17,587 bases of DNA, taken from NCBI GenBank assembly GCA_903828055.1, contig CAIKKP010000057.1:1-17587 (forward strand). The letters run 5' to 3'. A program made the translations under genes and the position numbers. This document shows positions 931 through 15,226 of the stretch, one piece after another. This DNA comes from an uncultured bacterium. Its GTDB lineage: Bacteria; Patescibacteriota; Andersenbacteria; UBA10190; CAIZMI01. Each line of letters begins with the position of its first letter. The first letter of the stretch is position 1. A model generated the notes under the pieces. The model was not told the origin of the DNA. It made no database searches and saw only the letters and a list, made by a program, of their open reading frames with translations.

Positions 931-1257
931 ATGGACGCAGTACCACAAACACCCGTTACGCCAAATCCGGCTGACGACGTGCAAAAGAATAAAGCTCTAG
1001 CCGCTATTTCTTATATTTATATCGCCAGCTTGATCATCTTGTTGGTAAAAAAGGATAGTCCATTTGCGCAATTTCATGCAAAGCAGGGTTTCGTCTTGTT
1101 TATCGCCGCTTTGATTTGCGGATTTGTGCCGATTCTCGGTTGGTTATTGAGCATTGTTATTTTGGTTATGGCAATTATTGGAATCGTTTCGGCCGCGCAA
1201 GGCAAATGGTACAAAATGCCGTTGGTCTCCCAGTTGGCTGAAAAGATAAATTTCTAA
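931..1257 (+). CDS. DUF4870 (Tic20-like) family small membrane protein
   Basis: 108 aa with two predicted TM helices. Motifs AAISYIYIASLII...KKDSPFAQFHAKQGFVLFI and PILGWLLSIVILVMAII are characteristic of DUF4870 proteins. Confidence 0.7.
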   Translation: MDAVPQTPVTPNPADDVQKNKALAAISYIYIASLIILLVKKDSPFAQFHAKQGFVLFIAALICGFVPILGWLLSIVILVMAIIGIVSAAQGKWYKMPLVSQLAEKINF

Positions 1258-1275
1258 TTTAAAATGAAATTGTAA

Positions 1276-1360
1276 GGGAGCACGTTCTTGCTGTGTCGCT
1301 CCGTAGCTCAATAGAGCGAAGGGGGGTGCTCCCGTGCGGGCGGACTAGGACGTCCGCCCC
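1276..1360 (+). promoter_or_regulatory. GC-rich structured element of two tandem hairpins upstream of the pyk promoter
   Basis: gggagcac (1276-1283) pairs with gtgctccc about 42 nt later, enclosing an inner gctc-aata-gagc hairpin. A second hairpin follows at gggcggac...gtccgccc (about 1337-1360). The surrounding intergenic DNA is AT-rich. Confidence 0.3.
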
Positions 1361-1387
1361 TACGCGTTATAATTAAACTCAATCACC

Positions 1388-2815
1388 ATGTTAAAGCGCA
1401 CTAAAATCGTTTGCACAATCGGGCCCGCTTGTCAGTCGGAAGATAAATTATCGGCTATGATTAAGGCCGGGATGAACGTAGCGCGTCTTAATATGTCGCA
1501 CGGAACGTATGAGAATCATGCGCTCTTGATTCAGAATATTCGTAAAGCCTCGGAAAAGAATGGGGCGATTGTTGCATTACTGTTGGATTTGCAGGGTCCG
1601 AAAATTCGCGTCGGCAAATTGCCTGATGGTGGCGTAGAAATTAAGAAAGACGCGAAAATAATTCTCACCACCGGTACAGAAAAATATTCTGAAGGTGTAA
1701 TTCCGGTGCAGTTCAAGAATTTGCATAAAGATGTCAAAGAAGGTGATCGCATTTTATTGGATGATGGAAATTTGGAAGTGGCCGTTGAAAAGGTTGACGG
1801 CAGGGATATTTACTGTCGCATGATTATTGGTGGAAAGCTTATTTCGCATAAGGGAATTACTGTTCCAACTGCATCGTTGAGTACTTCCGCCTTGTCCAAA
1901 AAAGATAAGGAAGATTTGGTGTTTGGATTGAAACAGGGTGTTGATTTTGTCGCAATTTCCTTTGTTCGTCGTCCTTCCGATATTCGCGAATTGCGCGGTT
2001 TAATCAAAAAAGGATTACCCGATGGAATGGCAACACCGCTGATTATTTCCAAGATTGAAAAACATGAGGCATTGGTAAATTTGGATGAAATTATCGCGGA
2101 AACCGATGGTATTATGGTTGCTCGGGGCGACCTGGCACTGGAAACCAAGGCTTCCGAAGTTCCAATTTGGCAAAAGAGAATGATTCAAAAATGTTTGGAG
2201 GTTGCCAAACCGGTGATTACCGCGACGCAAATGTTAGATTCAATGACCAATGCGCCACGTCCCACACGTGCGGAAATTTCTGACGTGGCTAACGCGGTAA
2301 TAGATCACACGGACGCGACGATGCTTTCTCAGGAATCGGCGATGGGAAAATATCCGATAGAAACAGTAACAACAATGGCTGAGATCGCGCATTCTACCGA
2401 GGCTTCACCATTGGATGACATGGTTACTCTTCCTCCGCTTGATGGTACAGCTCCACCGGTATTGGCAATGAGCGCCGCCGCTTGTAGAGTGGCAAAAGAA
2501 GTCGGTGCCAAGGCCATATTTGTCATGAGTCGTACAGGGTTCACTGCTCGTTGTGTTTCTCGTCACCGTCCGCTTTTGCCTATCATTGTCGCAACCTCTG
2601 AGGCTTCTACGCGCAATCAGTTGGCGTTGAGTTGGGGGGTCGATCCATATTCTATCGAAAAATTCAGCGAGGCCAGGGAAGCCTGGGCGATTTTAGCTCC
2701 GGAATTGAAGAAAAAATATAAATTCAAAAAGGGTGATAAAATTATTGCTGTTTCCGGTTTAACGTCCAACCGCCATGGTGACTGGGACGAGTCGGTGCGT
2801 GTGTTTGAGGTGTAG
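1388..2815 (+). CDS. pyk: Pyruvate kinase
   Basis: 475 aa. N-terminal RTKIVCTIGPA, NVARLNMSHG, active-site MVARGDLA and the C-terminal regulatory-domain architecture are all present. TATAAT lies at 1368-1373. Confidence 0.95.
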   Translation: MLKRTKIVCTIGPACQSEDKLSAMIKAGMNVARLNMSHGTYENHALLIQNIRKASEKNGAIVALLLDLQGPKIRVGKLPDGGVEIKKDAKIILTTGTEKYSEGVIPVQFKNLHKDVKEGDRILLDDGNLEVAVEKVDGRDIYCRMIIGGKLISHKGITVPTASLSTSALSKKDKEDLVFGLKQGVDFVAISFVRRPSDIRELRGLIKKGLPDGMATPLIISKIEKHEALVNLDEIIAETDGIMVARGDLALETKASEVPIWQKRMIQKCLEVAKPVITATQMLDSMTNAPRPTRAEISDVANAVIDHTDATMLSQESAMGKYPIETVTTMAEIAHSTEASPLDDMVTLPPLDGTAPPVLAMSAAACRVAKEVGAKAIFVMSRTGFTARCVSRHRPLLPIIVATSEASTRNQLALSWGVDPYSIEKFSEAREAWAILAPELKKKYKFKKGDKIIAVSGLTSNRHGDWDESVRVFEV

Positions 2816-2886
2816 AAAAATAAATTATTTTATAAAATTTTCAGCAGGCCACCTAATCGTACTTTGTATTATTCATGGTGATTTTT

Positions 2887-2895
2887 TGCTATAAT
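2887..2895 (+). promoter_or_regulatory. Extended -10 box TGcTATAAT
   Basis: Same TGCTATAATA motif as at 892-901. It lies 26 nt upstream of the ATG at 2921, and the -35 is weak. Confidence 0.4.
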
Positions 2896-2920
2896 ATACT
2901 GGTCAATAATTAATATTTAT

Positions 2921-3856
2921 ATGCAAACAAAAACAAAGATCATATCGGTTATTGCGGTGGTTGTTGCGGTGGCGATAGTTTTGGCGTTCGCTATTAATCG
3001 GCCCATGGACAAAGAAATATATTCCTCATCAGATTATGATGTTACTGAGGAAAACATGATTGGTGGTCGGGCATTGCCACAATCATTAGTCGGAGTTGCT
3101 TCAGTGGAGAAAATTCAATCTTTTGCTGACAATTCGGGCGACAAGGCCTCATCTCAACAAAAACTGCAGTCCACTGAAAGATTAATTGTTCGTACCGGGC
3201 GACTGTCGGTTGTTTCTAATGATGTGCGAAAATCGGTCGGTGATATGTCGTCTTACGTTGTTGGTATCGGCGGTTTTGTGGTCAGTTCAAATGTGCAAGG
3301 AACGAATGATAATCCTTCTGCCACTTTGGAAGTTAGGGTTCCTGTCGACAAGTTTCAGGAATCGGTTGATAAGGCAAAAACTGCCGGCTTGCGCGTTACC
3401 AGCGAATCATTGACCGGCGAAGATGTGACGGAAGATTTTGTGGACACACAAGCGAGAATAAAAAATCTGCAGGCCAGTGAAATGCAGTTTTCTGAAATCA
3501 TGAAAAAAGCACAGAAAATCTCGGATGTATTGGAAGTACAACAACAACTTGAGCGAGTAAGAGGAGATATCGATGTCGCTCAAGGTCATGCGCAGTACTT
3601 AGAAAAATCTGCCAAGATGTCATCAATCACGATCTATTTTGCGACCGATGAAGCACAACTGCCGGTGGTGGATCCGGTAAATAATTGGAACCCGCTTACC
3701 ATTATCAAGAACGCATTCCGCTCTTTGGTTGGGTTGGCGCAGGGGTTGGGAACACTGGTAATCTGGTTGGTAATCTATCTCCCGCTTTGGGTATTAATCG
3801 CGGTAGTGGTTTACATCATAAAAAAAATAGTACGGCGTAATCAACAGCTAAAATAG
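2921..3856 (+). CDS. DUF4349 domain protein, a membrane-anchored envelope protein
   Basis: 311 aa with an N-terminal TM and two C-terminal TM helices. The central region carries LEVRVPVDKFQESVDKAKTAGLRVTSESLTGEDVTEDFVDTQARIKNLQASE...VLEVQQQLERVRGDID, which matches the conserved DUF4349 core including DVTEEYVD and RNL. Confidence 0.75.
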   Translation: MQTKTKIISVIAVVVAVAIVLAFAINRPMDKEIYSSSDYDVTEENMIGGRALPQSLVGVASVEKIQSFADNSGDKASSQQKLQSTERLIVRTGRLSVVSNDVRKSVGDMSSYVVGIGGFVVSSNVQGTNDNPSATLEVRVPVDKFQESVDKAKTAGLRVTSESLTGEDVTEDFVDTQARIKNLQASEMQFSEIMKKAQKISDVLEVQQQLERVRGDIDVAQGHAQYLEKSAKMSSITIYFATDEAQLPVVDPVNNWNPLTIIKNAFRSLVGLAQGLGTLVIWLVIYLPLWVLIAVVVYIIKKIVRRNQQLK

Positions 3857-3865
3857 CTATTGCCG

Positions 3866-3901
3866 AAAAAATGCCTCACCCGAAGAGTGAGGCATTTTTT
3901 A
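3866..3901. terminator. Bidirectional rho-independent terminator
   Basis: AAAAA, then stem atgcctcac (3871-3879), a 7-nt loop, stem gtgaggcat (3887-3895), then TTTTTT. It sits between the DUF4349 gene and the stop of the minus-strand recombinase ORF. Confidence 0.8.
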
Positions 3902-3913
3902 ATGGCAGGTTAG

Positions 3914-5554
3914 TTATTGCGGATCTGGTTCACAAGCGGTATGCTTTTGACGCGATAAATAAGCCAAGGAGAGGTGGCCGAGTGGTCGAAGGCGCGGCTC
4001 TCGAAAAGCCGTAGGGGCGCAAGCTTCTCGTGGGTTCGAATCCCACCCTCTCCGCCAGTTTGTACTTTTCGTAAAATCGTAGTCGGTTGCCTTCGCGCGT
4101 TGCGCTTCGGCGTGATATTTCGACGCGATTCGCCACGCGGGTTGGGGGGAAAACGACAACGACCGCTCGGCGATGCGGAAGTTCGAACCAATCTTTTTGA
4201 GAAAATCCCGTCCCGCGACGGGATTTTCTTGTTGAGCGATATTTTCGGCTTGGTTAGCCTCTTTTATGAAGTTTATCATCAGTTCGAACCGATTTTTGCT
4301 CTTTGTTCCAAAAGCGGAGATTTTCTCTTCTAAATCTTTTTTAGCAAGCATAAGTTTTTGTTTTTTCGCAACATATTCCATTTGTGATAAATTTCCGTCC
4401 AGTTGTAAATCAAGCAAACGATCAAGTTTTGTTTCTAGATCCACGAGTTCATCTCTCGTCTTTTGGACATGAAAGCTTTCCGCTTGGACGCCCTCCATTT
4501 TCTCTTTTTCAAATTCCGCAATACTCGCTTTTGCCCAACCGTCTGACAAAGAAACTTTTTTGATCACCTCCTTTATTTGAGAAGTGATGGCGTCCTCTCT
4601 CGCATACCTTTGTGTGCAAGGATTTTTCCGTTTCGTACATCGCAAATAGTTATGTCCTTTTTGCGTTTCAGTGGTAATGAAGCAACCGCACTCCCCGCAA
4701 CGGAAAAATCCTCTGTACACATAAGGTTTGAGTTTTGGCGTTTTCGGTTTTGATTTATTCATCATCACTTCTTGAACGGAATCAAAAAGCTTCTTTGTGA
4801 TAATCGGTTCATGCTTTCCGTCATACAGTTCATCGTTATATTCAATCATTCCGTAATAGATTTTGTTCTTAAGCATATATTGATAATTTGAGACGGAAAG
4901 CATTTTACCTTTCTTGCCAACCAAGCCTAGGGAATTGATCATCTTTCGCACTTGAGCAAGAGGATATTCACCAGTGGCGTACATTTCAAACGCCCGCTTG
5001 ATATACTTTGCCTTTTCTTTGTCCACGGCGATACAGCGAGCATTTTTATCGTTCACATAGCCCAATGGCGCCCAAGCGGGCCAGATGCCATTGCGTAACT
5101 TCTGGCGAATACCTCTCTTGATATTTTCCGACAGATTATCCACATAGTACTTTGATTGCCCAAAAGCGATTGATAACATAAATTTTCCCTGTGGTGTCGG
5201 ATCAAACCAAAAAGTAGGAAATTTTAGCGTGGTTATTTTCCCAGTATCTACCAGATAGATTATCCGTCCGCCGTCTATGGAATTGCGAGCTAAGCGGTCA
5301 GGGTGCCACGCTAAAATTCCTTCTGCTTCATTTTTCTCTATGCAAGAGATCATTTCGTTGAAAATATCTCTGCCCGGCTCTTTGGCGGTTTTACTTTCCA
5401 CAAACTCACGGACGATATTCAATCCTTCTTTTTTCGCAAATTCCCGCAATTCAAACATTTGCGCTTCAATACTCAAAACCTGCCTTTCAGGTTCGTCCGT
5501 GGATTTGCGGGCATAGAGAAAAATCTTTTTGGTTTGTAAATTTATGTTGTCCAT
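3914..5554 (-). CDS. Large serine recombinase with resolvase/invertase catalytic domain, recombinase domain and zinc ribbon
   Basis: The N-terminus YARKST...S has the catalytic Ser context of serine recombinases, followed by an RLARN motif. A CxxC...C...C zinc ribbon lies around residues 286-313 (FRCGECGCFITTETQKGHNYLRCTKRKNPC), and a coiled-coil region follows. Residues 1-456 are unique sequence. Residues 457-546 are encoded by repeat X and the antisense strand of the tRNA, so this is a probable read-through tail. Confidence 0.85.
   Translation of the reverse strand: MDNINLQTKKIFLYARKSTDEPERQVLSIEAQMFELREFAKKEGLNIVREFVESKTAKEPGRDIFNEMISCIEKNEAEGILAWHPDRLARNSIDGGRIIYLVDTGKITTLKFPTFWFDPTPQGKFMLSIAFGQSKYYVDNLSENIKRGIRQKLRNGIWPAWAPLGYVNDKNARCIAVDKEKAKYIKRAFEMYATGEYPLAQVRKMINSLGLVGKKGKMLSVSNYQYMLKNKIYYGMIEYNDELYDGKHEPIITKKLFDSVQEVMMNKSKPKTPKLKPYVYRGFFRCGECGCFITTETQKGHNYLRCTKRKNPCTQRYAREDAITSQIKEVIKKVSLSDGWAKASIAEFEKEKMEGVQAESFHVQKTRDELVDLETKLDRLLDLQLDGNLSQMEYVAKKQKLMLAKKDLEEKISAFGTKSKNRFELMINFIKEANQAENIAQQENPVAGRDFLKKIGSNFRIAERSLSFSPQPAWRIASKYHAEAQRAKATDYDFTKSTNWRRGWDSNPREACAPTAFREPRLRPLGHLSLAYLSRQKHTACEPDPQ
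3968..4057 (+). tRNA. tRNA-Ser with anticodon CGA; class II with a long variable arm and encoded CCA
   Basis: Acceptor GGAGAGG pairs with CCTCTCC. The D arm is GCCGAGTGGTCGAAGGCG. The anticodon stem cggct/agccg carries loop CTCGAAA, giving anticodon CGA. A 19-nt variable arm is followed by T arm GTGGG-TTCGAAT-CCCAC, discriminator G and CCA. It closely resembles canonical bacterial tRNA-Ser. Confidence 0.9.
4052..4185 (+). repeat. Inverted repeat X, copy 1 (134 bp, about 58 % GC)
   Basis: Exact reverse complement of 5618-5751, checked base by base (134 of 134). It begins with CCGCCA, the last 6 nt of the tRNA-Ser. Confidence 0.95.
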
Positions 5555-5585
5555 TCTTTATTTTTGGTTAGCTAAAAGATTGGTT

Positions 5586-5602
5586 GTATCGCCGTGCGAT
5601 AC
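5586..5602. promoter_or_regulatory. 7-bp perfect palindrome in the recombinase upstream leader
   Basis: gtatcgc-cgt-gcgatac lies between the recombinase start codon (5554) and repeat X' (5618). It is a candidate operator. Confidence 0.3.
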
Positions 5603-5617
5603 CCACGCATTGCGCGG

Positions 5618-5751
5618 CGAACTTCCGCATCGCCGAGCGGTCGTTGTCGTTTTCCCCCCAACCCGCGTGGCGAATCGCGTCGAAATATCACGCCGAAGCG
5701 CAACGCGCGAAGGCAACCGACTACGATTTTACGAAAAGTACAAACTGGCGG
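5618..5751 (-). repeat. Inverted repeat X, copy 2
   Basis: Reverse complement of 4052-4185 at 100 % identity. Confidence 0.95.
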
Positions 5752-5900
5752 GCGTTTTTGGACGAAGTTCGAACGTCGTTCGACGCAAACGCGTGACGCC
5801 CCCCCAGCAACGAAACGCGACGACGCCGATTCGTAACGCGAAAAAGGCATGGGAATAAATGAGTACTGTGTATTCTATAACGCAATCTTTATTTTTGCGA
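5748..5900 (+). repeat. Inverted repeat Y, copy 1 (153 bp)
   Basis: Reverse-complement match to 7675-7830 at about 94 % identity. The differences are C7 versus C9 in a homopolymer, a 12-nt divergent patch and one further substitution. It overlaps X' by 4 nt (GCGG). Confidence 0.9.
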
Positions 5901-5916
5901 CACGCCCTCTAAAAAT

Positions 5917-7638
5917 TCAAATAAAATTATTTAATTTTTTAGAAACAAAAAATGGTCCTATTGCTAAATACTTTATGTTTTTTGAATCAATAAAAGCTTC
6001 AATTGCTTGCCCTGGGTCATTAACGATCGGCAAGCCTTTAATATTGAACGATGTATTAATAATCAGAGGAATATTAGTTATATTTTCATATTCTTTTATG
6101 AGATCATAGTAAATACCATTATCATCGTTGTTTACTGTCTGAACTCGTACACTCCCATCAACATGTTGTGCTGCAGGTACTTTGTTACTGTATTCAGACT
6201 GTATTGCATCAACCAACAACATGTATGGCGATTTGGTTCCGCGTACCAGCCAATCTTTTGTTTTTTCTTCAAGAATAGAAATTGCAAAAGGACGAAATGA
6301 TTCCCTGTGTTTAGTTATGTTTAATTTTTCAATCATACTTTTATCAACGGCCGATGCAAGAATACTGCGCGCACCAAGAGCTCGGGGACCAAATTCTAAT
6401 CGTCCCTGAAACCACATAACGATTTCGCCCTCACTCAAAAGTCTGGCAACTTTTGTGTGAATTAAATTTTCCTTTGAATATGAAAATAAGTTTCCATGTT
6501 TCTTTAATTCATTTTCAATTTCCTTATTTGAGTACTCGGGGCCTAAATATGCATGACTAAACCGAACAGGTTTCTTTTCCTTGTTGAATTCTTGATGCAG
6601 TAAGTATTCCGCACCAATTGCTACACCTGCGTCATGCGATGCGGGCTGGATAAAAACCTCCTTGAATGGGGTTTTTTCTAAAATAAATCCATTTGTTACG
6701 GAATTCAAACAGACGCCACCAGCCATCACGAGTTTGCTTTTTTTTGTCTTATTATAAATATCATTTAGTTTTTCCAAAACTATCTCTTGTGTGTACTCTT
6801 GCCAAGTTGCCGCGACATCGAAATGGGCTTGCTTATATTGGCCTGATATGGCTGAAGGTTCGCCAATTAATTTTTCAAATTTCTCTGTTGGTTCTCCTTT
6901 GCAATCAGCTATTTTAAAATAAGAGGTATCTACATTTAGCCAGTCATTATCTTTTTCTGGAAAGAATTTCACAATATTTTTAAATTCACTCAAATATTTT
7001 GGCTTTCCAAGTGCAGCGAATGCCATCGTCGTGCCAGCCTTTTGCCAACCAGGCTCGAAACCGCAATATTCGCCTACTGCTCCCCAAACACATCCAATAG
7101 AATTGGGGTGATACAAAAATCCTTTTTGTTGTATTCCTTTTTTGTAATCAATTTGTCCCCACAAACTTGAATCATATTCTCCCCGCGCATCTATAGTTAA
7201 AAATGCGGCATCATCAAACCCCGAAGCATAAAATGCCGATGCGACATGTGCTTGGTGATGAATGTAAAATTTTATTTTTACGTTTGAAGAAAGTTTTCCG
7301 ATTCTCTTTTCAAAAAGATTAGCAATTGTTCTTAGTTGCCATAACTTTTTTAAGCTCTTTTTAAAAACGTAAAATGGCGGATGATATTGGAACAAGTATT
7401 CTTTAATAATTCGATTAAAAAATAGTTCTTTGGTGTCCCAACCTACGGCAACGCCTTTTAAATCTTTACTTGTAATGCCAGCCTTTTTGAAACAATATTT
7501 AATGGCATTTTCTGGAAAACCGGAATAATGTTTTTTTTGAGTAAATCGTTCTTCTTCAACTGCAACAATAATATTTCCCTCATCATCGATGAGGCAAGCA
7601 CTACTATCGTGTGAATAAGCATTTAGGCCAAGATACAT
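5917..7638 (-). CDS. Carbamoyltransferase of the NodU/CmcH family
   Basis: 573 aa. The N-terminus MYLGLNAYSHDSSACLIDDEGNIIVAVEEERFTQKKHYSGFP is the hallmark of NodU/CmcH/TobZ-type carbamoyltransferases, and the length is typical for the family. Confidence 0.9.
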   Translation of the reverse strand: MYLGLNAYSHDSSACLIDDEGNIIVAVEEERFTQKKHYSGFPENAIKYCFKKAGITSKDLKGVAVGWDTKELFFNRIIKEYLFQYHPPFYVFKKSLKKLWQLRTIANLFEKRIGKLSSNVKIKFYIHHQAHVASAFYASGFDDAAFLTIDARGEYDSSLWGQIDYKKGIQQKGFLYHPNSIGCVWGAVGEYCGFEPGWQKAGTTMAFAALGKPKYLSEFKNIVKFFPEKDNDWLNVDTSYFKIADCKGEPTEKFEKLIGEPSAISGQYKQAHFDVAATWQEYTQEIVLEKLNDIYNKTKKSKLVMAGGVCLNSVTNGFILEKTPFKEVFIQPASHDAGVAIGAEYLLHQEFNKEKKPVRFSHAYLGPEYSNKEIENELKKHGNLFSYSKENLIHTKVARLLSEGEIVMWFQGRLEFGPRALGARSILASAVDKSMIEKLNITKHRESFRPFAISILEEKTKDWLVRGTKSPYMLLVDAIQSEYSNKVPAAQHVDGSVRVQTVNNDDNGIYYDLIKEYENITNIPLIINTSFNIKGLPIVNDPGQAIEAFIDSKNIKYLAIGPFFVSKKLNNFI

Positions 7639-7674
7639 GGATATTGCATTAATGATCTGATCTTATAATAGTTC

Positions 7675-7830
7675 TTCGCAAAAATAAAGATTGCGTTATA
7701 GAATACACAGTACTCATTTATTCCCATGCCTTTTTCGCGCTACGAATCGGCGTCGTCGCGTTTCGTTGCTGGGGGGGGGCGTCACGCGTTGTCAGCGAAA
7801 CACGTTCGAACTTCGTCCAAAAACGCCCGC
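7675..7830 (-). repeat. Inverted repeat Y, copy 2 (155 bp)
   Basis: Reverse complement of 5748-5900. It ends with CCGC at the outer junction. Confidence 0.9.
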
Positions 7831-7839
7831 AAAATAATG

Positions 7840-7867
7840 AAACGCCCTTGTGGCGTTTTGTTATTTT
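7840..7867. terminator. Terminator-like hairpin
   Basis: aaacgcc (7840-7846) pairs with ggcgttt (7852-7858) around loop cttgt, followed by tgttatttt. It lies at the outer edge of repeat Y'. Confidence 0.35.
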
Positions 7868-7977
7868 GCCTGAGCAACCAACTGCTTGGTTGCGAGTGGG
7901 ATTCGAACGGTTCGCGTTGTCCAGCAGGACCGCGAACCGGTGGCCAGAAATTTGCAAATCATTGCAAGTTTCGAGGC

Positions 7978-7992
7978 CGAATCCCACCCTCT
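7978..7992 (+). repeat. Partial duplicate of the tRNA-Ser 3' segment, a candidate attR core
   Basis: 15 of 15 identity to 4037-4051, with mismatches on both flanks. An inverted partner, gtgggattcgaa, lies at 7897-7908. Confidence 0.4.
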
Positions 7993-8087
7993 TTGCAGTA
8001 AGAATTCTTTTCCTTATCGTTGACAGTATCGAATTAGCGTGTAAAGTTTATCAACATTGGTAATTTATAAATAATTGCAATATTGAT

Positions 8088-8531
8088 ATGGGTGAATACA
8101 AAAATGCCTCTGACGTAAAAACAAACGCCATTGGAAAAAACAAAAAAGTGCTCTTCATTGAAGAAGTTGAAGACGATAACTCCCTCCGCAGAGTGCTTAG
8201 TGATAAATTGACCCATGAGGGGTTTGGCGTTTATGAAGCAAAAGATGGCGAAGAGGGATTAGCGGTTGCTTTAAGTGAGCACCCCGATTTGATTTTGCTT
8301 GATATTAAAATGCCCAAAATGGACGGTCTAACGATGATGAAAAAATTGCGTCAGACCGATGAATGGGGAAAGCATGTTCCGATTATTATGTTGACGAACC
8401 TTAGCGCGAACGATAATCATATCAACCAAGTGATTACGGAGAATGAGCCGGCCTATTATATCGTGAAATCAGACTACACACTTGACGAGTTGGTAAAGAA
8501 AATAAGAGAACGACTTTCTAAGGTGCTTTGA
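8088..8531 (+). CDS. Single-domain response regulator (CheY-like receiver)
   Basis: 147 aa. Acidic pocket EEVEDD, phospho-acceptor context LILLDIKMPKMDG, conserved T in IIMLTNLS and a K near the C-terminus. There is no output domain, and no histidine kinase in the window. Confidence 0.8.
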   Translation: MGEYKNASDVKTNAIGKNKKVLFIEEVEDDNSLRRVLSDKLTHEGFGVYEAKDGEEGLAVALSEHPDLILLDIKMPKMDGLTMMKKLRQTDEWGKHVPIIMLTNLSANDNHINQVITENEPAYYIVKSDYTLDELVKKIRERLSKVL

Positions 8532-8948
8532 ATATAAGCACTGTCAGGGTTACAAAATCTTTTAGGGTATACGCAATAATGGGTTGGAGTCTCGTCCTTG
8601 CGAGGCTTTTCAAGGCCGAAGCAATCTCCCGTTAAAAATTACTACTTCATAGCACTCATTCTTGAGATTGCCACGCTGTTCGACAACCCTGAGCTTCCCT
8701 CTCGATCCTGAGCTCGAGGTCGAAGAGCAGTCGAAGGGCCTTGTCCTCCGCCAGCCGGCGGAATCACGCATGATCAATGGCTCGCAAAGACGCGAATTGT
8801 TTCAATTTTGTTTCTGATATGGCTTATGTTTATCTATTAATCCAGATGATTTACGTATGATCTTCATGGGTTGTTTCTTTAAATAAGTCGCATATCGTTT
8901 AGAATATTGAAGCTTACCTACGCTTACGGTTTGTGCTATTATTTACTT

Positions 8949-10187
8949 ATGCCTACAGAAAAGAATTCCGGAGCAATAGACGCGGAAGTGATAAAAGAGC
9001 CATCTTTGAAGGAGATTCTTGACGATAAGGAACTTGGGCGTGGTTTTAAGACGTGGTTAGAAGGACAAAAAAGGGAGGATTTAATGGTTCGTATGTTGTC
9101 TGGGAAATTGGAAAGTGATGATCTGAAGACGTTGGCGTCAGAAACGGATAAGTTTTTAGAGCGAACGAGTCAAAGTGGCGAAATAAAGAAACAAATTTCA
9201 GAAACCGATGAAATTAGTACACTGGTTGAGGCATCAAACTCGGATGACTTAAAAGATTTGGTTAAACTTTTTGGTGTGGATGGTATTAAGGAGGCTTTTG
9301 GGGATGTGTTGGATAAAATCGCTTTGATGCCCGGTGATGAGCTTGCGAATGTTTACAAAGTTTTTAATGAGCGACGTGAAGCGGGGAAGTTGGTGGAACA
9401 ACAAAAAGCCGAATTTAACAGTATGTTGGAAAAGTTGAATTTGTCACAAGAAGAGGCAAAAGAAGTCGCAGGTATTCCGATATGGGAAGTAAGACAAAAA
9501 AAGGTGGCTGAGTTGTGGCGTAGTAAGGGGTTAGAAAAAACCGAGGAAAAAAGTATTTGGTTTATAAAATGGAATAAAAAGGTGTGGCCGCCGGAACAAG
9601 AGGAATTTATGAAAATGGATGCTGAGGATTTTTCCAAGGCGCTTAAAATTAATGAGTGGACAATAACTGAAAAACAAATTGAGAAGGCGGAAAAAGCGTT
9701 AAAGGAACGGCAGAAGTCTTTAGTGGAATCACTGAACGCTACCGCCTCTATCGATGGTATTGCAGAACTCAATCGTCATTTGATAGGGGAAAAGGAAAAA
9801 CCGGACAAAACAATGAGTTTCAAAGAAGTGAAACAGGAACTGAAAAAAGAAAAGGACAAGGAAAACATTTCTCGTGAATTTTTTGAGTATGCGGAACGCG
9901 GGTTCGCTGATTATATTGAAGAGGCTGGCTACCCGATGGGTACGAAAGATTTGCAGATGGCTGCCGCAAGTGATTTTTATCGAAAGTTTCAGGACAATCG
10001 CAAATTACAACAGAACAAACGTGGCGGATTATGGTCGTCTATCTATCAAACTGTTCTTGAGCCGTTAGTTCAAGAATTATTGACCGAACTACAGACAGAT
10101 GATCGCTTTAATGTGACAACAAGAGTTGAGAAGAAACGCGGCGTAGCTGACAAAAATTGGTATAATTTATCAAAGAAAACAAAATGA
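8949..10187 (+). CDS. Hypothetical K/E-rich soluble protein, first gene of a four-gene operon
   Basis: The ORF is open from TTG 8907. An ATG at 8949 lies directly downstream of TGcTATTAT (8934-8942), so a leaderless start is plausible. The protein is charged, largely helical, and has no recognisable domain or TM. Its stop overlaps the next start in ATGA. Confidence 0.5.
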   Translation: MPTEKNSGAIDAEVIKEPSLKEILDDKELGRGFKTWLEGQKREDLMVRMLSGKLESDDLKTLASETDKFLERTSQSGEIKKQISETDEISTLVEASNSDDLKDLVKLFGVDGIKEAFGDVLDKIALMPGDELANVYKVFNERREAGKLVEQQKAEFNSMLEKLNLSQEEAKEVAGIPIWEVRQKKVAELWRSKGLEKTEEKSIWFIKWNKKVWPPEQEEFMKMDAEDFSKALKINEWTITEKQIEKAEKALKERQKSLVESLNATASIDGIAELNRHLIGEKEKPDKTMSFKEVKQELKKEKDKENISREFFEYAERGFADYIEEAGYPMGTKDLQMAAASDFYRKFQDNRKLQQNKRGGLWSSIYQTVLEPLVQELLTELQTDDRFNVTTRVEKKRGVADKNWYNLSKKTK

Positions 10188-10474
10188 CCGAACTCGCCAT
10201 TCAACTTGAAAAGCTAATTGAAGTCGGTGATGAAAAAGCCGTGCGCGCTTTTGTTATTGAACACATTAAAGAGTTTCCGGAAGAAACAAGAAATCAAATC
10301 ATCTTTGCTTTTTTTACCGAAGCGATGGAAAACGACACCAAGGCCAAGCAAGCGCTCGCGGGAATAATTGGTCAAGGGTTGGATGAATTGAAACAAATTA
10401 ATAAAGACCTAGCCAATCTTGGCGATAAGAAAGCGATTTTGGACGTACAAAAGAAGATTCAGGGGATAAAGTAG
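10184..10474 (+). CDS. Hypothetical 96-aa protein
   Basis: The ATG overlaps the upstream TGA in ATGA. Coding-like composition, no recognisable domain. Confidence 0.5.
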   Translation: MTELAIQLEKLIEVGDEKAVRAFVIEHIKEFPEETRNQIIFAFFTEAMENDTKAKQALAGIIGQGLDELKQINKDLANLGDKKAILDVQKKIQGIK

Positions 10475-10687
10475 GACGCGCACTACGTCAGACATAACCC
10501 CTCTTGCGCTGGCACCCTCTCGAACATCCACCGGATGTTCTCGGGGCATCCGCCGCGCCACTTTGATAAGGGGAGATAACTTGGTGTCGTATTTCTTCCA
10601 TTTTTCAGGGGAAGGCGGGGATGAGTTTGGTTGTTGCTTTTGATATGTTTGTTTATTCGTTAGAAAAGCGTCATAATTGACGTAGCT

Positions 10688-11152
10688 ATGCCAACTGAAA
10701 CAAGAAAAGAAAACCCCGAAGGCAGTTTAGTTTTTGAAAATTCGGAAAAAGCGAAGCAGTTTGCCGAGCGCGTGAAAGAAAACTTAGAACAAAAGAATGA
10801 GTCTGAACCTGGCATGGAAAGGCGTAACGAACTTACTGAAAAACGCATTAAAGACGCAATTCGTGAAGAATTGGAGAACGAAACAAACGGTGCCGGTTTG
10901 GCTACTGTTGCGGAAGGCAAGGGTGAATGGCAGTATTCCGCCGAGGATCGCGCGGGTGTACAACAATATGTAAACGTGGCTTTCGCTACCTCCGTTCAAA
11001 AAGCGGTGGAAGAAATGATGCGAGAAAAAATTGTCGCGGGCAGTAAAGCCGACGAAGCGTCCACTTATCGTAAACTTGATTTATTTCATGACACGCTCAC
11101 CGATCATCTCTACCAAGATATGACGGCCAGAAAAATGATTCCACCGGGATGA
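10688..11152 (+). CDS. Hypothetical 154-aa acidic protein
   Basis: Preceded by TTGTTT, a 17-nt spacer and CATAAT (about 10648-10676). Its stop overlaps the next ATG in ATGA. No TM and no recognisable domain. Confidence 0.5.
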   Translation: MPTETRKENPEGSLVFENSEKAKQFAERVKENLEQKNESEPGMERRNELTEKRIKDAIREELENETNGAGLATVAEGKGEWQYSAEDRAGVQQYVNVAFATSVQKAVEEMMREKIVAGSKADEASTYRKLDLFHDTLTDHLYQDMTARKMIPPG

Positions 11153-13617
11153 TTCAGTTACTTGTTCTTTTCTTGTTGTTGATTATTGTAGGGATTATCA
11201 CCTATTTGGTTTTGAAGTATTTGCAGGAAGAAAGATTACTCTCTTCTTTACATTTGATTTTGCTGGAAGTGACGGTGCCGAAAGACTTACCGCAACAAGA
11301 AAAAGACCGTGAGGGAACGGTGCAGGAACAAATTATGCGCGGTTCGCAGTTTTTAGCCAGTTTGGCGGGTTTGCGTGAAGAAAATTTCATTAAGAATCTG
11401 ATTTTTGGTAAACCGACATGGGGTTTCGAAATTGTCGCGCATCCGAATGGTGAGATTATTTTCTTTGTTTCGGTACCACGTCGTTATGAAGAATTTATGG
11501 AAAAACAAATTCTTGCTTTTTATCCGCGTGCCGATGTGAAGCGCGTGGCGGATTATACGATTTTTGAAGAAGGTGACACGGTTGAGGGGGGAGTTGTAAA
11601 ACAACATCATAAAAAATATTTACCGTTGAAGACTTTTGAGGATTTGCCGTCCGACCCGATGCAGGGGATTACACAGGCGTTATCTAAAATGGAAAAAGGC
11701 GACGGTGGCGCGGTGCAATTTATTGTGCGACCGGCATCCGCGCGGATTCGTGTGAAGGGACGGCGTGTTACGCGTCAGGTGGCGTTGGGAAAAGAAAAAT
11801 CGGTGCGACACGGGACTTCTTCTTTTGGCGAGGCGGCTCGCGGTTTGGGGCGCACAGCTAACAATTCCTTATTGAAAAATAAAGAGCAAAATACGCGACA
11901 AGACGATCGGGAAGATAAGTGGCAAGCACAAATGTCGCCTGCGGAACAAGAACGACTAGAACGCGTAGATAAAAAAACCGGTGAATATCAGTTTGAAGTG
12001 ACAATGCGCTTAATCGTTTCCTGCAAAACAAAAGAAACAGCCGAATCACATTTTATGGTACTCAAAGAATCACTGACGCAATTTGGCGACCCTTCTTTAA
12101 ACGAGTTGAGTACGCATCGTCAAACGAAACGTAGTTTTTTCCGTGATTATATATTCCGCACGTTTAAAAAATCGCAATGCATGGTGTTGTCGTTGACGGA
12201 GCTTTTGTCACTTTTCCATTTCCCGTTATCTACCACTGAAACACCCAATATTCGTTGGCGCACGTCAAGAAGTGTCGCGGCACCGGCCAATTTGCCCCAA
12301 AACGGTATTTTATTAGGTTACAACGATTACCGAGGGATTAAGACTCCTATTCGGCTTCAAAGAGAGGACAGGCGTCGTCATATGTATATGATCGGTCAAA
12401 CTGGAACCGGTAAAACAACGCTCTTCAAAAATATGATTATGCAGGATATTCGCAACGGAGAAGGAGTCGGGGTGGTTGATCCGCACGGACAATTGATTGA
12501 AGATATTCTTTTGCAGATTCCTAGAGAGCGGGCCGAAGATGTGATTATTTTTGATCCGCGCGATACCGATCGGCCGTTGGGGTTGAATATGTTGGAGGCG
12601 CGCAATCCGGCGCAACGCGATCTTGTTGTTTCCGAACTAATTATGATTATCGAAAAACTGGCCACACGGATGAATCCGGAATCGATCGGTCCGATGTTTG
12701 AACATTATTTGAGGAACGCGCTTTTGACACTGGTGGAAGACCCAGACTCAACAATGATCGATATCTCTCGTCTTTTTACCGACAAGGCCTTTCGTGATTG
12801 GCTGGTGGCAAAAGTGAAAAACCCGATAGTGCGGGAGTTTTGGGAGAAAGAGTATGCTCAATCTCTGAAGGGGCAACAGTCGGCCGATATGTTGTCGTAT
12901 GTTATCAGTAAGCTTGGGCGTTTTATTGGTAATGAGGTAATTCGCAATATCATCGGTCAGCCAAAAAGTTCGTTTGATCTGCGTGAAATAATGGATAATA
13001 AAAAAATCTTACTCGTTAATTTGTCGAAGGGTTCGTTGGGTGATATTAATGCCGATTTGCTTGGGTTTATCTTAGTCAGTAAGTTGCAAATTACGGCGCT
13101 TTCCAGAACGGATATTCCGGAAAATCAACGTAAGGATTTTTATCTTTATCTCGATGAGTTTCAAAATTTCACCACCGATACTGTCGGGACAATTTTAAGC
13201 GAGGCGCGTAAATATCGCTTGGACTTGAATTTGACGCATCAGTTTATCGCGCAACTTTCGGATGAAATCAGAGAAGCTGTTTTTGGTAACGTTGGTACGG
13301 TAATTTCTTATCGTGTCGGTGTGGAAGATTCGGAGCTGATGGCAAAACAACTCGCCCCTGTTTTTGACGAGTATGATTTGATTAATGTTCCAAATTATAA
13401 TTGTTTCACGCGCTTACTTGCCAAAAATCAACCGCAACGTCCATTTTCCATGAAAGCGTCACCGCCACCACCGGGGGGCGACGAAGAACTTCGTCAGAAT
13501 TTGTATGAATTGTCACGTCTTAAATATGGTCGACCAAAACAGGAAGTGGAAGAGAGAATATTGGAACGGCTGAAAGTAGCGACTGCTCCCAGCCTGTCCG
13601 GTATGGGTTCGCGCTAA
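11149..13617 (+). CDS. TrwB/TraD/VirD4-like type IV coupling protein family P-loop ATPase, membrane-anchored
   Basis: 822 aa with an N-terminal TM (LVLFLLLIIVGIITYLVL). Walker A MIGQTGTGKTTL is followed by VVDPHGQLIEDIL...IIFDPRDTDRPLGLNMLE, matching the TrwB pattern GATGTGKS...IVDPNGD...ILNP.D.R. Walker B is YLYLDEFQNF. The C-terminal LTHQFIAQL...GNVGTVISYRVG matches the Q..QL...GN motif of coupling proteins. Confidence 0.6.
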   Translation: MIQLLVLFLLLIIVGIITYLVLKYLQEERLLSSLHLILLEVTVPKDLPQQEKDREGTVQEQIMRGSQFLASLAGLREENFIKNLIFGKPTWGFEIVAHPNGEIIFFVSVPRRYEEFMEKQILAFYPRADVKRVADYTIFEEGDTVEGGVVKQHHKKYLPLKTFEDLPSDPMQGITQALSKMEKGDGGAVQFIVRPASARIRVKGRRVTRQVALGKEKSVRHGTSSFGEAARGLGRTANNSLLKNKEQNTRQDDREDKWQAQMSPAEQERLERVDKKTGEYQFEVTMRLIVSCKTKETAESHFMVLKESLTQFGDPSLNELSTHRQTKRSFFRDYIFRTFKKSQCMVLSLTELLSLFHFPLSTTETPNIRWRTSRSVAAPANLPQNGILLGYNDYRGIKTPIRLQREDRRRHMYMIGQTGTGKTTLFKNMIMQDIRNGEGVGVVDPHGQLIEDILLQIPRERAEDVIIFDPRDTDRPLGLNMLEARNPAQRDLVVSELIMIIEKLATRMNPESIGPMFEHYLRNALLTLVEDPDSTMIDISRLFTDKAFRDWLVAKVKNPIVREFWEKEYAQSLKGQQSADMLSYVISKLGRFIGNEVIRNIIGQPKSSFDLREIMDNKKILLVNLSKGSLGDINADLLGFILVSKLQITALSRTDIPENQRKDFYLYLDEFQNFTTDTVGTILSEARKYRLDLNLTHQFIAQLSDEIREAVFGNVGTVISYRVGVEDSELMAKQLAPVFDEYDLINVPNYNCFTRLLAKNQPQRPFSMKASPPPPGGDEELRQNLYELSRLKYGRPKQEVEERILERLKVATAPSLSGMGSR

Positions 13618-13670
13618 TTTCACGTGTCTGTCATTCCTGCATCAAGCAGGAATCAGCGACGAGTGTAACC

Positions 13671-14423
13671 ATGGGCTCCTGCTCAATGGCAGGAGAGACG
13701 TCTGTGACGTATGGGCAGGAATCCGCTATACTGCTTTTGATGCAAAAAGATTATATCATCGCCGTTGGGGGATCGATCATTTGTCCGGACAAAGTTAATA
13801 CGGAGTATCTTAAGGCGTTGCATGCCTTTATCCGGGGTGAGATAAGAGATGGTAAACGCTTTATTTTGGTGGTAGGGGGTGGGGCACCGGCTAGAACTTT
13901 TCAAAAAGCGGCCGCTGAGGTGGTAGACGTGCCGGATGAAGATAAAGATTGGCTTGGTATTCATGCCACACGTCTTAATGCCCATCTTTTGCGGACGGTT
14001 TTTCGCGAGGAAGCAAATCCCGTGATTTTTGAAGCGCGCGGAAAAATTACGGAATTCGGCAGTTATCCTTTGATAATTGGTGCCGGATGGCGACCGGGAT
14101 GGTCGACGGATTTTGTAACAGTGCAAATAGCGGTTGATTTTAAAAATCCGCAGGCGATTATTTTAGGCAAACCGGAATTTGTTTATGATAAGGATAATCA
14201 AGCTTTTCCGGATGCCAAGCCGTATGTCAAAATGACTTGGGAAGAATATATGAAACTGGTGCCGGCTAAATGGTCACCGGGTATTCACGCGCCGGTGGAT
14301 CCGGTGGCGGCTAAGCTTGCACAAAAAGAAAAATTACGCGTGATTGTGGCGGGTGGCAAAGATTTGCAGAATGTAAAAGATATTTTAGACGGGAAAGATT
14401 TTAGAGGAACAACGATAGAATAA
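13671..14423 (+). CDS. pyrH: UMP kinase of the archaeal-type amino-acid-kinase fold
   Basis: IIAVGGSII...FILVVGGGAPAR...DWLGIHATRLNAHLL matches the archaeal-like PyrH consensus. The true start may be the internal Met at about 13740 (MQKDYIIAVGGS). Confidence 0.65.
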   Translation: MGSCSMAGETSVTYGQESAILLLMQKDYIIAVGGSIICPDKVNTEYLKALHAFIRGEIRDGKRFILVVGGGAPARTFQKAAAEVVDVPDEDKDWLGIHATRLNAHLLRTVFREEANPVIFEARGKITEFGSYPLIIGAGWRPGWSTDFVTVQIAVDFKNPQAIILGKPEFVYDKDNQAFPDAKPYVKMTWEEYMKLVPAKWSPGIHAPVDPVAAKLAQKEKLRVIVAGGKDLQNVKDILDGKDFRGTTIE

Positions 14424-14514
14424 TGAATTTGTGGCTCAAAATACTTTAATAGTAAAAAAGCATAGCTAATTGGTCCGTTTTTTTGTATGCTTAGTCCATC
14501 GCTGAAACAAATAC

Positions 14515-15183
14515 ATGAATAAAGGATCTAAACAAAAAAAAGTTTATCGATTAGCTGATGAACAACAAGGTCATTCAGGGTTATCATTTTTCCAGATTTT
14601 TTTACGCGCGAGTGTTGTTTTTTCTTTTGCCTTTATAATGTTGTGTACGTTTTTTGTGTCGGCCGCAATCTTGCCCAAGAAAGTTGTAATTTTGAATGTT
14701 CCGCGCGGTGCCTCAATTAATATCGGAATGCCCACGGCAAAGAAGGACGCGATAAAACTGATTGAAATTTGTCGAGGCGCATTAATTCCAAAATGTACGG
14801 TGTTGGCAAAGAATGTGCCTGGCGTAAAAAAAGTTATTAAAATTCCTGTCACTTATGCGATGGGGAATGCGACTATTAAAATTTCCATTACAAATAGTGT
14901 CTTGGGGAAAACAACAAAAACTCCGCTGGCTGATAAGAAAGTGAAAATTATTGCGGTTAAGACGTCTGGTGGTGGCTCTGGCGGAGGCGGTGGCGGAAGC
15001 AGTGGTGGCGGTTCCAGTTCCAGTTCTTCTGAAAGTACAATTACGTTAATCAATGGTGGTGTTTCAACACCAACACCAACACCGGTAAGCACCCCCTCTT
15101 CCGGTGGAACAATTATTCGTGCCACTCCTACACCAACACCATCAATAAACAATACAACAAAACCGGTTTTGATTAATCATTAA
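14515..15183 (+). CDS. Membrane-anchored protein with Gly/Ser and Thr/Pro low-complexity linkers, function unknown
   Basis: 222 aa with one TM (residues about 33-55), a middle region, then SGGGSGGGGGGSSGGGSSSSSS and TPTPTPVSTP...TPTPTPS tracts. Confidence 0.5.
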   Translation: MNKGSKQKKVYRLADEQQGHSGLSFFQIFLRASVVFSFAFIMLCTFFVSAAILPKKVVILNVPRGASINIGMPTAKKDAIKLIEICRGALIPKCTVLAKNVPGVKKVIKIPVTYAMGNATIKISITNSVLGKTTKTPLADKKVKIIAVKTSGGGSGGGGGGSSGGGSSSSSSESTITLINGGVSTPTPTPVSTPSSGGTIIRATPTPTPSINNTTKPVLINH

Positions 15184-15226
15184 AACTTGTTAGACAGGGG
15201 CTAAAAACCGATATACGCTCATCTTT

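Follow-up and report, generated by a model that had tools for sequence, protein, structure and literature searches.

We analyzed a 17,587-nucleotide (nt) stretch of DNA (hereafter the window; positions 1 to 17,587 of contig CAIKKP010000057.1, assembly GCA_903828055.1) from an uncultured member of the Andersenbacteria (Patescibacteriota), centering on an element integrated in the 3′ end of a tRNA-Ser gene. The flanking genes, encoding pyruvate kinase, a DUF4349 protein, a response regulator, a TrwB-like ATPase, and DnaG, all lie on the plus strand. Between them are two minus-strand genes: one encodes a 546-amino-acid (aa) large serine recombinase (LSR; 3914 to 5554, in its integrated form), the other a 573-aa carbamoyltransferase (5917 to 7638) with NodU/CmcH-type N and C domains (Pfam) and a lower GC content (0.36 to 0.38). 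The LSR contains Resolvase (PF00239; 1.2e-20), Recombinase (PF07508; 5.1e-16), and Zn_ribbon_recom (PF13408; 2.3e-07) domains (Pfam), and phmmer matched it to the A118 integrase structure (PDB 4KIS) and to resolvase-family catalytic domains. Its conserved residues, 1 to 501 (4052 to 5554), end within the tRNA-Ser(CGA) gene (3968 to 4057, plus strand), which was found by ARAGORN and matches the Rfam tRNA family at 59.5 bits.

A first-pass annotation of this DNA had proposed a single island, 4052 to 7977, bounded by a 15-nt tRNA segment that recurs downstream, with the two copies serving as left and right attachment sites (attL and attR). Our comparisons suggest instead a composite: an LSR element of 3.8 kb that appears to span 4052 to 7830, followed by a 147-nt remnant, so that the second 15-mer lies 147 nt outside the LSR element. 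The LSR and the carbamoyltransferase are the only genes encoded within 4052 to 7977, where both a tyrosine recombinase and the six-gene module of ssrA islands are absent; besides these two genes, 4052 to 7830 contains no candidate open reading frame (ORF) for a directionality factor.

Each of the two genes is bracketed by its own inverted repeat. Repeat X (4052 to 4185), which also encodes LSR codons 457 to 501 on the minus strand (...KYHAEA...DFTKSTNWR), and its perfect reverse complement X′ (5618 to 5751), upstream of the LSR start, flank the recombinase gene and are 100% identical over 134 nt. Repeats Y (5748 to 5900), downstream of the carbamoyltransferase stop codon, and Y′ (7676 to 7830) flank the cargo gene; they are 94% identical over ~155 nt, differing at 7 positions. 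Six of these seven differences are packed into ~12 nt (5777 to 5788 versus 7790 to 7801), just outside a conserved motif described below as the P arm, and beyond that cluster the Y arms are 99 to 100% identical. X′ and Y abut with a 4-nt overlap (CCGC), and the block they form, 5618 to 5900, is the reverse complement of the joint from 7830 to 4052 (Y′ to X) expected upon excision. The interior of the element therefore contains an intact, inverted copy of the element's own attachment site, attP. The center of this internal site (Z) lies at 5746 to 5790, with the core as TGGCGG at 5746 to 5751 and TTCGAAC at 5768 to 5774, in the reverse-complemented P arm and 16 nt from the core.

The repeat reported in the first-pass annotation is real. 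The 15-mer, CGAATCCCACCCTCT, occurs exactly at 4037 to 4051 and at 7978 to 7992, both on the plus strand, and the adjoining bases differ on either side (left, tgggtt versus cgaggc; right, ccgcca versus ttgcag). No third copy with two or fewer mismatches exists in the window, and none of 200 shuffles gave two matches. The 15-mer is, however, generic T-arm/acceptor sequence, found exactly in the tRNA-Ser genes of ~14 other loci that we fetched. The left boundary also stands as first described: 4051 is the final base before X, and the junction comparisons given below place the first base of the element at 4052, in the 3′ end of the tRNA. Nucleotides 3968 to 4051 are host DNA, and the last six of the tRNA gene (CCGCCA, 4052 to 4057) come from the element, as had been proposed; every X arm in the family begins with CCGCCA and so restores the tRNA end.

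The window element belongs to a large family. Databases hold ~8,000 LSR relatives with E < 1e-30, many of them 60 to 97% identical, and at least 577 loci of the family are present in JGI metagenomes. We compared the window with a set of at least 80 metagenome loci (L numbers), whose LSRs are 59 to 93% identical to that of the window. In nearly all of 80 loci, the conserved end of the LSR gene overlaps the tRNA 3′ end by 6 nt on the opposite strand, and an inverted repeat of ~134 nt flanks the LSR gene. The target is mostly tRNA-Ser, with any anticodon, and sometimes tRNA-Trp, -Asp, or -Gln. A second inverted repeat of 100 to 400 nt starts at the upstream X arm or overlaps it by ~6 nt; its partner is 2.5 to 6 kb away, bracketing the cargo. 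The shared layout thus starts with the tRNA, CCGCCA-X, and the LSR; X′, fused to Y, comes next, and the cargo is then followed by Y′ with CCGC(CA) and the host flank. Each member has a single LSR and a small cargo, and in every one an intact second attP, inverted, is retained between the two.

The right boundary follows from the junctions themselves. Read in the sense of the tRNA, the window attL is ...gggttcgaatcccaccctct joined to CCGCCAGTTTG..., the internal copy is ...acgttcgaacttcgtccaaaaacgc joined to CCGCCAGTTTG..., and the right end of Y′ is ...acgttcgaacttcgtccaaaaacgc joined to CCGCAAAATAATGAAACGCC.... The same triplet was found in 14 complete loci: the tRNA joined to CCGCCA-X at attL, a P arm joined to CCGCCA-X at the internal site, and the same P arm joined to CCGC(CA) at attR, beyond which lies unrelated host DNA, often with a terminator hairpin. 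In the window and in these 14 loci, identity among the sites is confined to the core, CCGC or CCGCCA (4 to 6 nt), as expected of hybrid sites in which attL is B-P′, attR is P-B′, and the internal copy is P-P′. In the window, the B arm of attL (4034 to 4051) has the T-loop motif GTTCGAA at 4034 to 4040, followed by 11 nt to the core CCGC (4052 to 4055), which is common to attL, internal attP, and attR, and it includes the first 15-mer; X, which begins at the core, is the P′ arm. At the other end, the P arm has GTTCGAA at 7804 to 7810, followed by 16 nt and the core CCGC at 7827 to 7830; these last bases of Y′ are the family attR, at which the LSR element ends on its right side.

The arms segregate by side of the LSR gene. 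Beyond the core on the downstream side of the LSR gene we counted 49 tRNA arms and 5 P arms, and on the upstream side, 49 P arms and 3 tRNA arms; the P arm is kept across loci whose Y sequences are otherwise unrelated. The distance from GTTCGAA to the core is 11 nt in tRNA arms but 16 nt in P arms. When a profile built from 48 distinct tRNA (B) arms was aligned with one built from 40 distinct P arms, the best fit was at a shift of exactly 5 nt (similarity, 0.369; all other shifts, ≤0.26). The outer DNA-binding domain of serine integrases has been reported to bind 5 bp closer to the center in attB than in attP (PMC11722253). The offset agrees with this rule, and we therefore assign the tRNA T-loop/acceptor as the B arm, and the end of Y′ as the P arm, of this LSR. 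Crossover would occur within CCGC, probably at its first CC (4052 to 4053), to judge from arm symmetry and the bases that differ.

Two comparisons between loci bear directly on the boundary. L042 and L077 contain the same element (99.9% identity over 3,159 nt) in different genomic surroundings, and the match between them breaks off precisely after ...AAAAAACACCGCA, that is, after the P arm plus CCGCA; on sequence grounds, this pair proves the rule that P arm plus core is the end of the element. In a relative, L017, tRNA-Ser(CGA) is unoccupied: it reads tRNA...CCCACCCTCT/CCGC/AGTCAGAC..., with CCA not encoded, and it fits the attB that we reconstruct for the window, ...CTCT/CCGC/AAAATAATG, followed by a terminator hairpin at 7829 to 7869. 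With the same element in different contexts with sharp ends (L042 and L077) and an empty target in a relative (L017), the window element appears to be an integrative or mobilizable element of the serine-integrase kind.

Read literally, the first-pass annotation calls for one element, 4052 to 7977, with crossover inside the 15-nt identity and the 15-mers as the cores of attL and attR. We consider this quite unlikely. An intact family attR occurs at 7804 to 7830, well before the second 15-mer; the identical internal copy joins the P arm straight to X, with neither the intervening segment (7831 to 7977, called s here) nor the 15-mer; the half-site offset puts the LSR site at the CCGC core; and in L042 and L077 the same element stops precisely at the P arm and CCGCA. 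In addition, 13 other complete loci in which the tRNA boundary was mapped showed no direct repeat of a tRNA fragment (≥10 nt) in the 500 nt past Y′, so this LSR family does not create such repeats. A partial tRNA repeat is thus not what bounds the LSR element distally, and the claim that 7978 to 7992 is its attR falls, while the left half of the attL/attR claim holds. By the same junction evidence (the triplets in 14 loci, and L042 and L077), we rejected s as part of the LSR element.

What speaks for the literal reading is the second 15-mer itself, which is exact, sits where an att site would fit, and becomes longer when the LSR element is deleted in silico: the repeat then grows to 18 of 20 bases (CGAATCCCACCCTCT CC/TT GCA), running from halfway along the T-loop as far as the tRNA end. 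Classical tRNA-integrating elements leave scars of this form, as do the ssrA islands of Dehalococcoides, which have a serine recombinase beside attL and a 20-bp repeat. Similarity also runs past the tRNA end: 7978 to 8011 (the 15-mer followed by TTGCAGTAAGAATTC...) aligns with the tRNA end and trailer of L017 over 34 nt at 82% (CTCT-TT-GCAGTAAGA versus CTCT-CC-GCAGTCAGA), whereas the sequence after 7830 has no similarity to that trailer. L017, with its unoccupied tRNA-Ser(CGA), has a single copy of the 15-mer; the first-pass annotation had held that a second copy in the same place in relatives free of the element would make the sequence native, a refuting outcome that L017 does not show. The alignment score was reached by 53 of 5,000 shuffles (p ~0.01) and comes from one distant relative, whose neighboring protein is 64% identical. 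Because the similarity extends into the L017 trailer, we rejected mere chance as the source of the 15-mer; the annotation's view that the repeat is nonrandom through its position rather than its length is upheld.

Segment s is highly structured. The region from 7827 to 8010 folds at −91.9 kcal/mol (z = −10.7), with an 18-bp terminator hairpin (7829 to 7869), an 8-bp hairpin (7874 to 7893), and a three-way junction, in whose closing stem an inverted tRNA-like 3′ fragment (7887 to 7912) pairs with 10 bases of the 15-mer. No Rfam family matched s, and no copy of it was found in any fetched locus. At a permissive threshold, Rfam matches over 3800 to 8200, such as sX4 and BSnc120, scored far below their gathering cutoffs, and the tRNA alone was credible.

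These structures raise an alternative in which the second 15-mer is no att scar at all, but part of an unrelated structured element: a repeat of tRNA-like or palindromic type, a small RNA, or the decayed remains of a second tRNA gene. The generic character of the 15-mer among tRNA-Ser genes would allow this, as would the fold, in which those 10 bases pair with an inverted copy at ~7898 to 7907; the inverted fragment is a second tRNA-like 3′ end with a different acceptor sequence, and back-to-back tRNA-Ser pairs are known in related loci (L031 and L086). Yet the similarity to the L017 trailer (GCAGT.AGA...TTATCG) continues beyond the tRNA end, ARAGORN and Rfam detect no tRNA or other RNA family at the second 15-mer, and L017 has nothing comparable downstream of its tRNA; we regard this alternative as unlikely.

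We read the second 15-mer as a displaced end because the similarity runs past the tRNA end into the L017 trailer, together with the 18-of-20 repeat: 7978 to 8011 would be the displaced 3′ end of the ancestral tRNA-Ser with its trailer, and s the remnant of an older insertion that restored the tRNA end and a terminator. Comparison with L017 tilts us somewhat toward this reading of s and the 15-mer. It predicts a relative in which tRNA-Ser directly precedes CCGCAGTAAGAATTC... and the response regulator gene. For the locus as a whole, the explanation that we favor with fair confidence is that 4052 to 7830 is an LSR element inserted by recombination between the family attP and the tRNA 3′ end, and that the second 15-mer stems from an older event.

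The order of events that this explanation implies would be as follows. An older insertion, of the classical type that leaves a repeat from the T-loop to the 3′ end, would have displaced the original tRNA end, and the 147 nt of s (7831 to 7977) would be what remains of it. The LSR element would later have inserted into the tRNA end restored by the older DNA, so that s would have been the tRNA flank at the time. The LSR is predicted to recombine attP, made up of the P arm, the core CCGCCA, and the P′ arm (where X begins), with a tRNA 3′ end; the tRNA starts with GG, has discriminator G, and is mostly tRNA-Ser. In attB, the T-loop/acceptor would serve as the B arm, and the core CCGC(CA) and then the trailer would follow it. 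Integration would place X, with its CCGCCA and terminator hairpin, directly after 4051, and would leave the P arm and CCGC at 7804 to 7830, joined to the former trailer with the native terminator hairpin at its start. Excision would proceed via attL × attR, with no directionality factor visible. The empty attB of the window would read CCCACCCTCTCCGC/AAAATAATGAAACGCC, or, with s retained, tRNA...CTCTCCGC/AAAATAATG...; the circle joint would read ...GTCAGCGAAACACGTTCGAACTTCGTCCAAAAACGC/CCGCCAGTTTGTAC with the single-nucleotide polymorphisms of Y′, and the 7 differences between Y and Y′ would set it apart from the internal copy.

Several points weigh against the explanation that we favor. No empty site was found in the same strain: all contigs with an identical DUF4349 or response regulator protein either carry the element or end in its repeats. 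The excision joint was not found either, so for this genome the boundary at 7830 rests on family comparison and not on a before/after pair. Recombinase activity, crossover position, and excision are predictions from sequence. The 18-of-20 outer repeat and the trailer similarity probably make the repeat of the first-pass annotation a genuine att-type scar, and the ssrA islands of Dehalococcoides are serine-recombinase islands whose 20-bp repeat starts halfway along the T-loop (PMC3146451); by analogy, a serine-recombinase origin of the outer repeat is possible. The trailer similarity itself comes from that single distant relative, at p ~0.01. Finally, we infer that s is the remnant of an older element even though it has neither a homologue in the fetched loci nor an Rfam match.

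Other searches for an empty or excised state were negative. A scan of species-representative genomes with the neighboring DUF4349 protein gave only a 29%-identical match from Acidimicrobiaceae, and among response regulator homologues at 70 to 74% identity none had a tRNA-Ser neighbor, which is uninformative. In IMG/VR, neither the attP pattern of the family nor the junction predicted for an empty site had any match (0 each). Four loci (L027, L035, L046, and L103) have P arms on both sides of the LSR; no circular contigs were found among loci of this kind.

The relatives also differ around the tRNA. In L020, a 226-aa gene, a cupin gene, and an amino-acid kinase gene come after DUF4349 and tRNA-Ser, and the block at 8088 to 13617 of the window (response regulator to DUF8128/TrwB-like ATPase) is missing from the syntenic place; this block may be one more variable or acquired stretch on the downstream side of the tRNA. 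Among homologues of the response regulator, the closest are named Paceibacterota; the names borne by DUF4349 homologues suggest that the window host resembles the Candidate Phyla Radiation (CPR) and lies near Peregrinibacteria. The tRNA of L020 (8986 to 9073) is on the opposite strand. L017 has a LAGLIDADG-like ORF (9035 to 10102) between DUF4349 and tRNA-Ser(CGA), and an intein-containing alpha-2-macroglobulin gene (10338 to 15428) after the tRNA. On the source contig, ~1 kb beyond the window start, is an rve-family (DDE) integrase gene (L001, 17558 to 18724).

The LSR segment is inverted between some relatives. L104 and L105, from different samples, have flanks that are 98.8% identical, the same DUF4349 protein, and a related LSR element at the orthologous tRNA-Ser(CGA), yet the LSR segment of one is inverted relative to that of the other, and the breakpoint lies at the inner end of X; both paths are read supported because X (134 nt) is shorter than the assembler k of 141. 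The tRNA is upstream of the LSR in L026, L063, and L085 as well. Inverted repeats bracket the segments family-wide, and both LSR orientations exist. In the window's own strain, only one orientation was assembled. The inversion may result from homologous recombination across the 134-nt repeat or from reintegration via the other attP. Cargo, too, is inverted between near-identical elements (L027 versus L029, and L040 versus L045), but we set this aside as evidence: the arms (195 to 315 nt and ~100% identical) exceed the assembler k, and L029 looks like a fold-back path.

Such observations invite the question of whether the inverted-repeat structure is itself an assembly artifact, produced by fold-back paths through repeats or by strain mixture. 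Many contigs break at X or the core (for example, L002, L011, L103, and L107), which is expected behavior for repeats; L029 has a 1,323-nt perfect inverted repeat that is probably a fold-back path, and where arms are longer than k the orientation of cargo in a contig is arbitrary. The window arrangement, however, was assembled collinearly and independently in at least five samples, X is shorter than k, the Y arms differ at 7 positions, and the repeats, with arms 86 to 100% identical, occur in >60 contigs produced by numerous studies and assemblers. An artifact is therefore, in our judgment, highly improbable.

Integration also determines the C terminus of the recombinase. At the att core the LSR ORF lacks a stop codon, and it continues for 45 further codons through the antisense strand of the tRNA to 3914 (...NWRRGWDSNPRE...), giving 546 aa; in the alternative (circle or flipped) state it would end ...TNWRAFLDEVRTSFDANA (tail ...NWRAFLDEVRTSFDANA), at ~515 aa. 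LSR homologues range from 500 to 580 aa because the tail depends on the DNA beyond the att core. If the LSR segment were flipped, tRNA-X would lead into CCGCGCAATGCGTGGG instead of AACCAATCTTTTTGAG. A contig from the same sample series, L103 (ERZ27313539 k141_714009), has an LSR body 99.9% identical to that of the window over 1,588 nt but encodes a 516-aa variant: its X-type 3′ end is different, and after this come the core, a P arm, and a helix-turn-helix (HTH) gene. The C-terminal/P′ module thus appears to have been swapped between elements of this sample series.

The second attP may permit integration in either orientation or cassette exchange, or it may serve in self-regulation, if the LSR binds upstream of its own gene; the flipped state may also expose the LSR gene to read-through from the tRNA. 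A retained intact attP could, in addition, drive chromosomal rearrangements from tRNA to tRNA.

The hairpin within the LSR gene is a further conserved part of the element. At 4197 to 4232, GAGAAAATCCCG-loop-CGGGATTTTCTTG with a T tract is placed where a terminator for the tRNA is needed; it is antisense within the LSR codons for ENP...RDFL. It is conserved in 32 distinct loci with a variable loop, including a compensatory CACG/CGTG pair in L089, and is probably an element-borne terminator for the tRNA. In L038 the stem takes an alternative form, and in L043 the loop is inverted.

The cargo of other family members is mostly of restriction-modification/defense type: D12 and N6/N4 methylases, ResIII helicase-nucleases, GmrSD-HNH, and OLD-like AAA_15 ATPase. 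Defense-type cargo was seen in L025, L034, L040, L043, L056, L068, L075, L092, and L100; the carbamoyltransferase of the window is atypical. L055 contains a nested arrangement (1167 to 6723) in which a diverged second LSR (76%), with its own 124-nt inverted repeats, abuts tRNA-Ala; this tRNA-Ala is duplicated inside the 356-nt arms on either side of the first element's cargo. In L063 (6661 to 8596), inverted copies of tRNA-Ser(GGA) lie on both sides of the LSR (226-nt inverted repeat, 92%), which may be a product of cassette exchange or inversion, or a chimeric assembly of two isomers. In L012 (2702 to 2796), from sample ERZ27313532, the LSR breaks off near residue 74 (window 5334/5335) and is joined to an unrelated coding sequence like that of formylglycine-generating enzyme, and a subpopulation with a disrupted recombinase therefore exists. 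L010 and L013 end at window position 5229, near the region of this cut.

Like the phage serine integrases (A118/LI, phiC31, Bxb1, and SPβ SprA), the window LSR has resolvase catalytic, recombinase, and zinc-ribbon domains and a coiled-coil region, and its sites are short, with few identical central bases and the outer motif (for the second DNA-binding domain, DBD2, or zinc ribbon) 5 bp nearer the center in attB. Unlike those systems, the window element is not a phage but a 3.8-kb element with one cargo gene; its attP overlaps the 3′ end of the recombinase ORF, and integration would alter the protein tail; it keeps a second, intact, inverted attP and has no visible directionality factor gene; and it targets the 3′ end of a tRNA, which it restores.

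The yeast 2-micron plasmid has FLP and two inverted repeats that separate two unique arcs; shufflons and invertons are likewise inversion systems. The excised circle of the window element would resemble the 2-micron flip-flop, with LSR and cargo arcs split by two inverted, site-bearing copies of ~290 nt, and the LSR arc is seen in both orientations, as in flip-flop systems. In contrast to these, the repeated site here is the integration site attP, and the element is chromosomal, in a tRNA gene. To our knowledge, serine integrases normally do not recombine attP with attP.

Closer in setting are the ssrA islands of Dehalococcoides with DsiB, in which a gene for a serine recombinase of ~540 aa, on the reverse strand, also lies beside attL in a tRNA-like gene; these islands, too, are small and carry cargo, and they accumulate at one site (PMC3146451). 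They have a six-gene integration module and the 20-bp direct repeat that starts halfway along the T-loop (PMC3146451), whereas the window family has a core identity of 4 to 6 nt, a single recombinase gene, and inverted-repeat brackets. The outer 15- to 20-nt repeat of the window resembles the ssrA-island scar but sits outside the LSR element. Tycheposons and classical tRNA islands share with the window family the tRNA 3′ end as target and an integrase at the tRNA-proximal end; in these, newcomers push older elements outward, and scattered partial tRNAs are old scars (bioRxiv 10.1101/2020.12.28.424599). They mostly have tyrosine recombinases, partial-tRNA repeats of ~40 nt, and, often, replication genes (bioRxiv 10.1101/2020.12.28.424599); the window, unlike tycheposons, has no tyrosine recombinase, and its active element makes no tRNA-fragment repeat. 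As in the integrase-driven inversions of Thermococcales (PMC5495485), the integrated element keeps a site that may recombine with other tRNA genes, and L063, with its LSR between inverted tRNA-Ser(GGA) copies, suggests comparable rearrangements. The Thermococcales system is archaeal and uses a tyrosine integrase (PMC5495485); inversion of host DNA is not demonstrated for the window family.

More tentatively, and with doubt outweighing belief, we suggest that these elements form an undescribed class of minimal integrative elements, very abundant in CPR bacteria, with two inverted attP sites and arcs that flip independently, permitting entry into tRNA genes in either orientation or cassette exchange; in such elements the LSR reading frame, spanning the att site, would have its tail and its facing promoter or terminator rewritten by integration, excision, and flipping. 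Such rewriting could act as an inherent switch of directionality or expression, in place of a separate directionality factor. The literature that we searched contains no description of an intact inverted attP inside an element or of a two-arc, 2-micron-like layout, nor of an invertible LSR segment, an att site in the 3′ end of a recombinase ORF (an att-spanning frame), or an antisense terminator there, none of which is proof that they are unpublished. The inverted second attP and the att-spanning frame raise a testable question, namely how directionality is controlled without a visible helper protein.

For the annotation of such islands, the corrected boundary is 7830 rather than 7992. Since serine integrases leave few identical bases, the att site of a recombinase is not proven by a short tRNA repeat beside its gene. 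The attP/attB pairs of this family can be read straight from sequence, which is useful for the discovery of recombinase tools. For the bacteria themselves, the family comprises serine-recombinase elements of 3 to 8 kb in CPR tRNA genes, mostly bearing restriction-modification/defense cassettes. CPR bacteria have tiny genomes, and their routes of gene exchange are poorly known; a ubiquitous, self-contained, tRNA-targeting shuttle with sites of ~50 bp would explain some of the strain-level variability of CPR bacteria.

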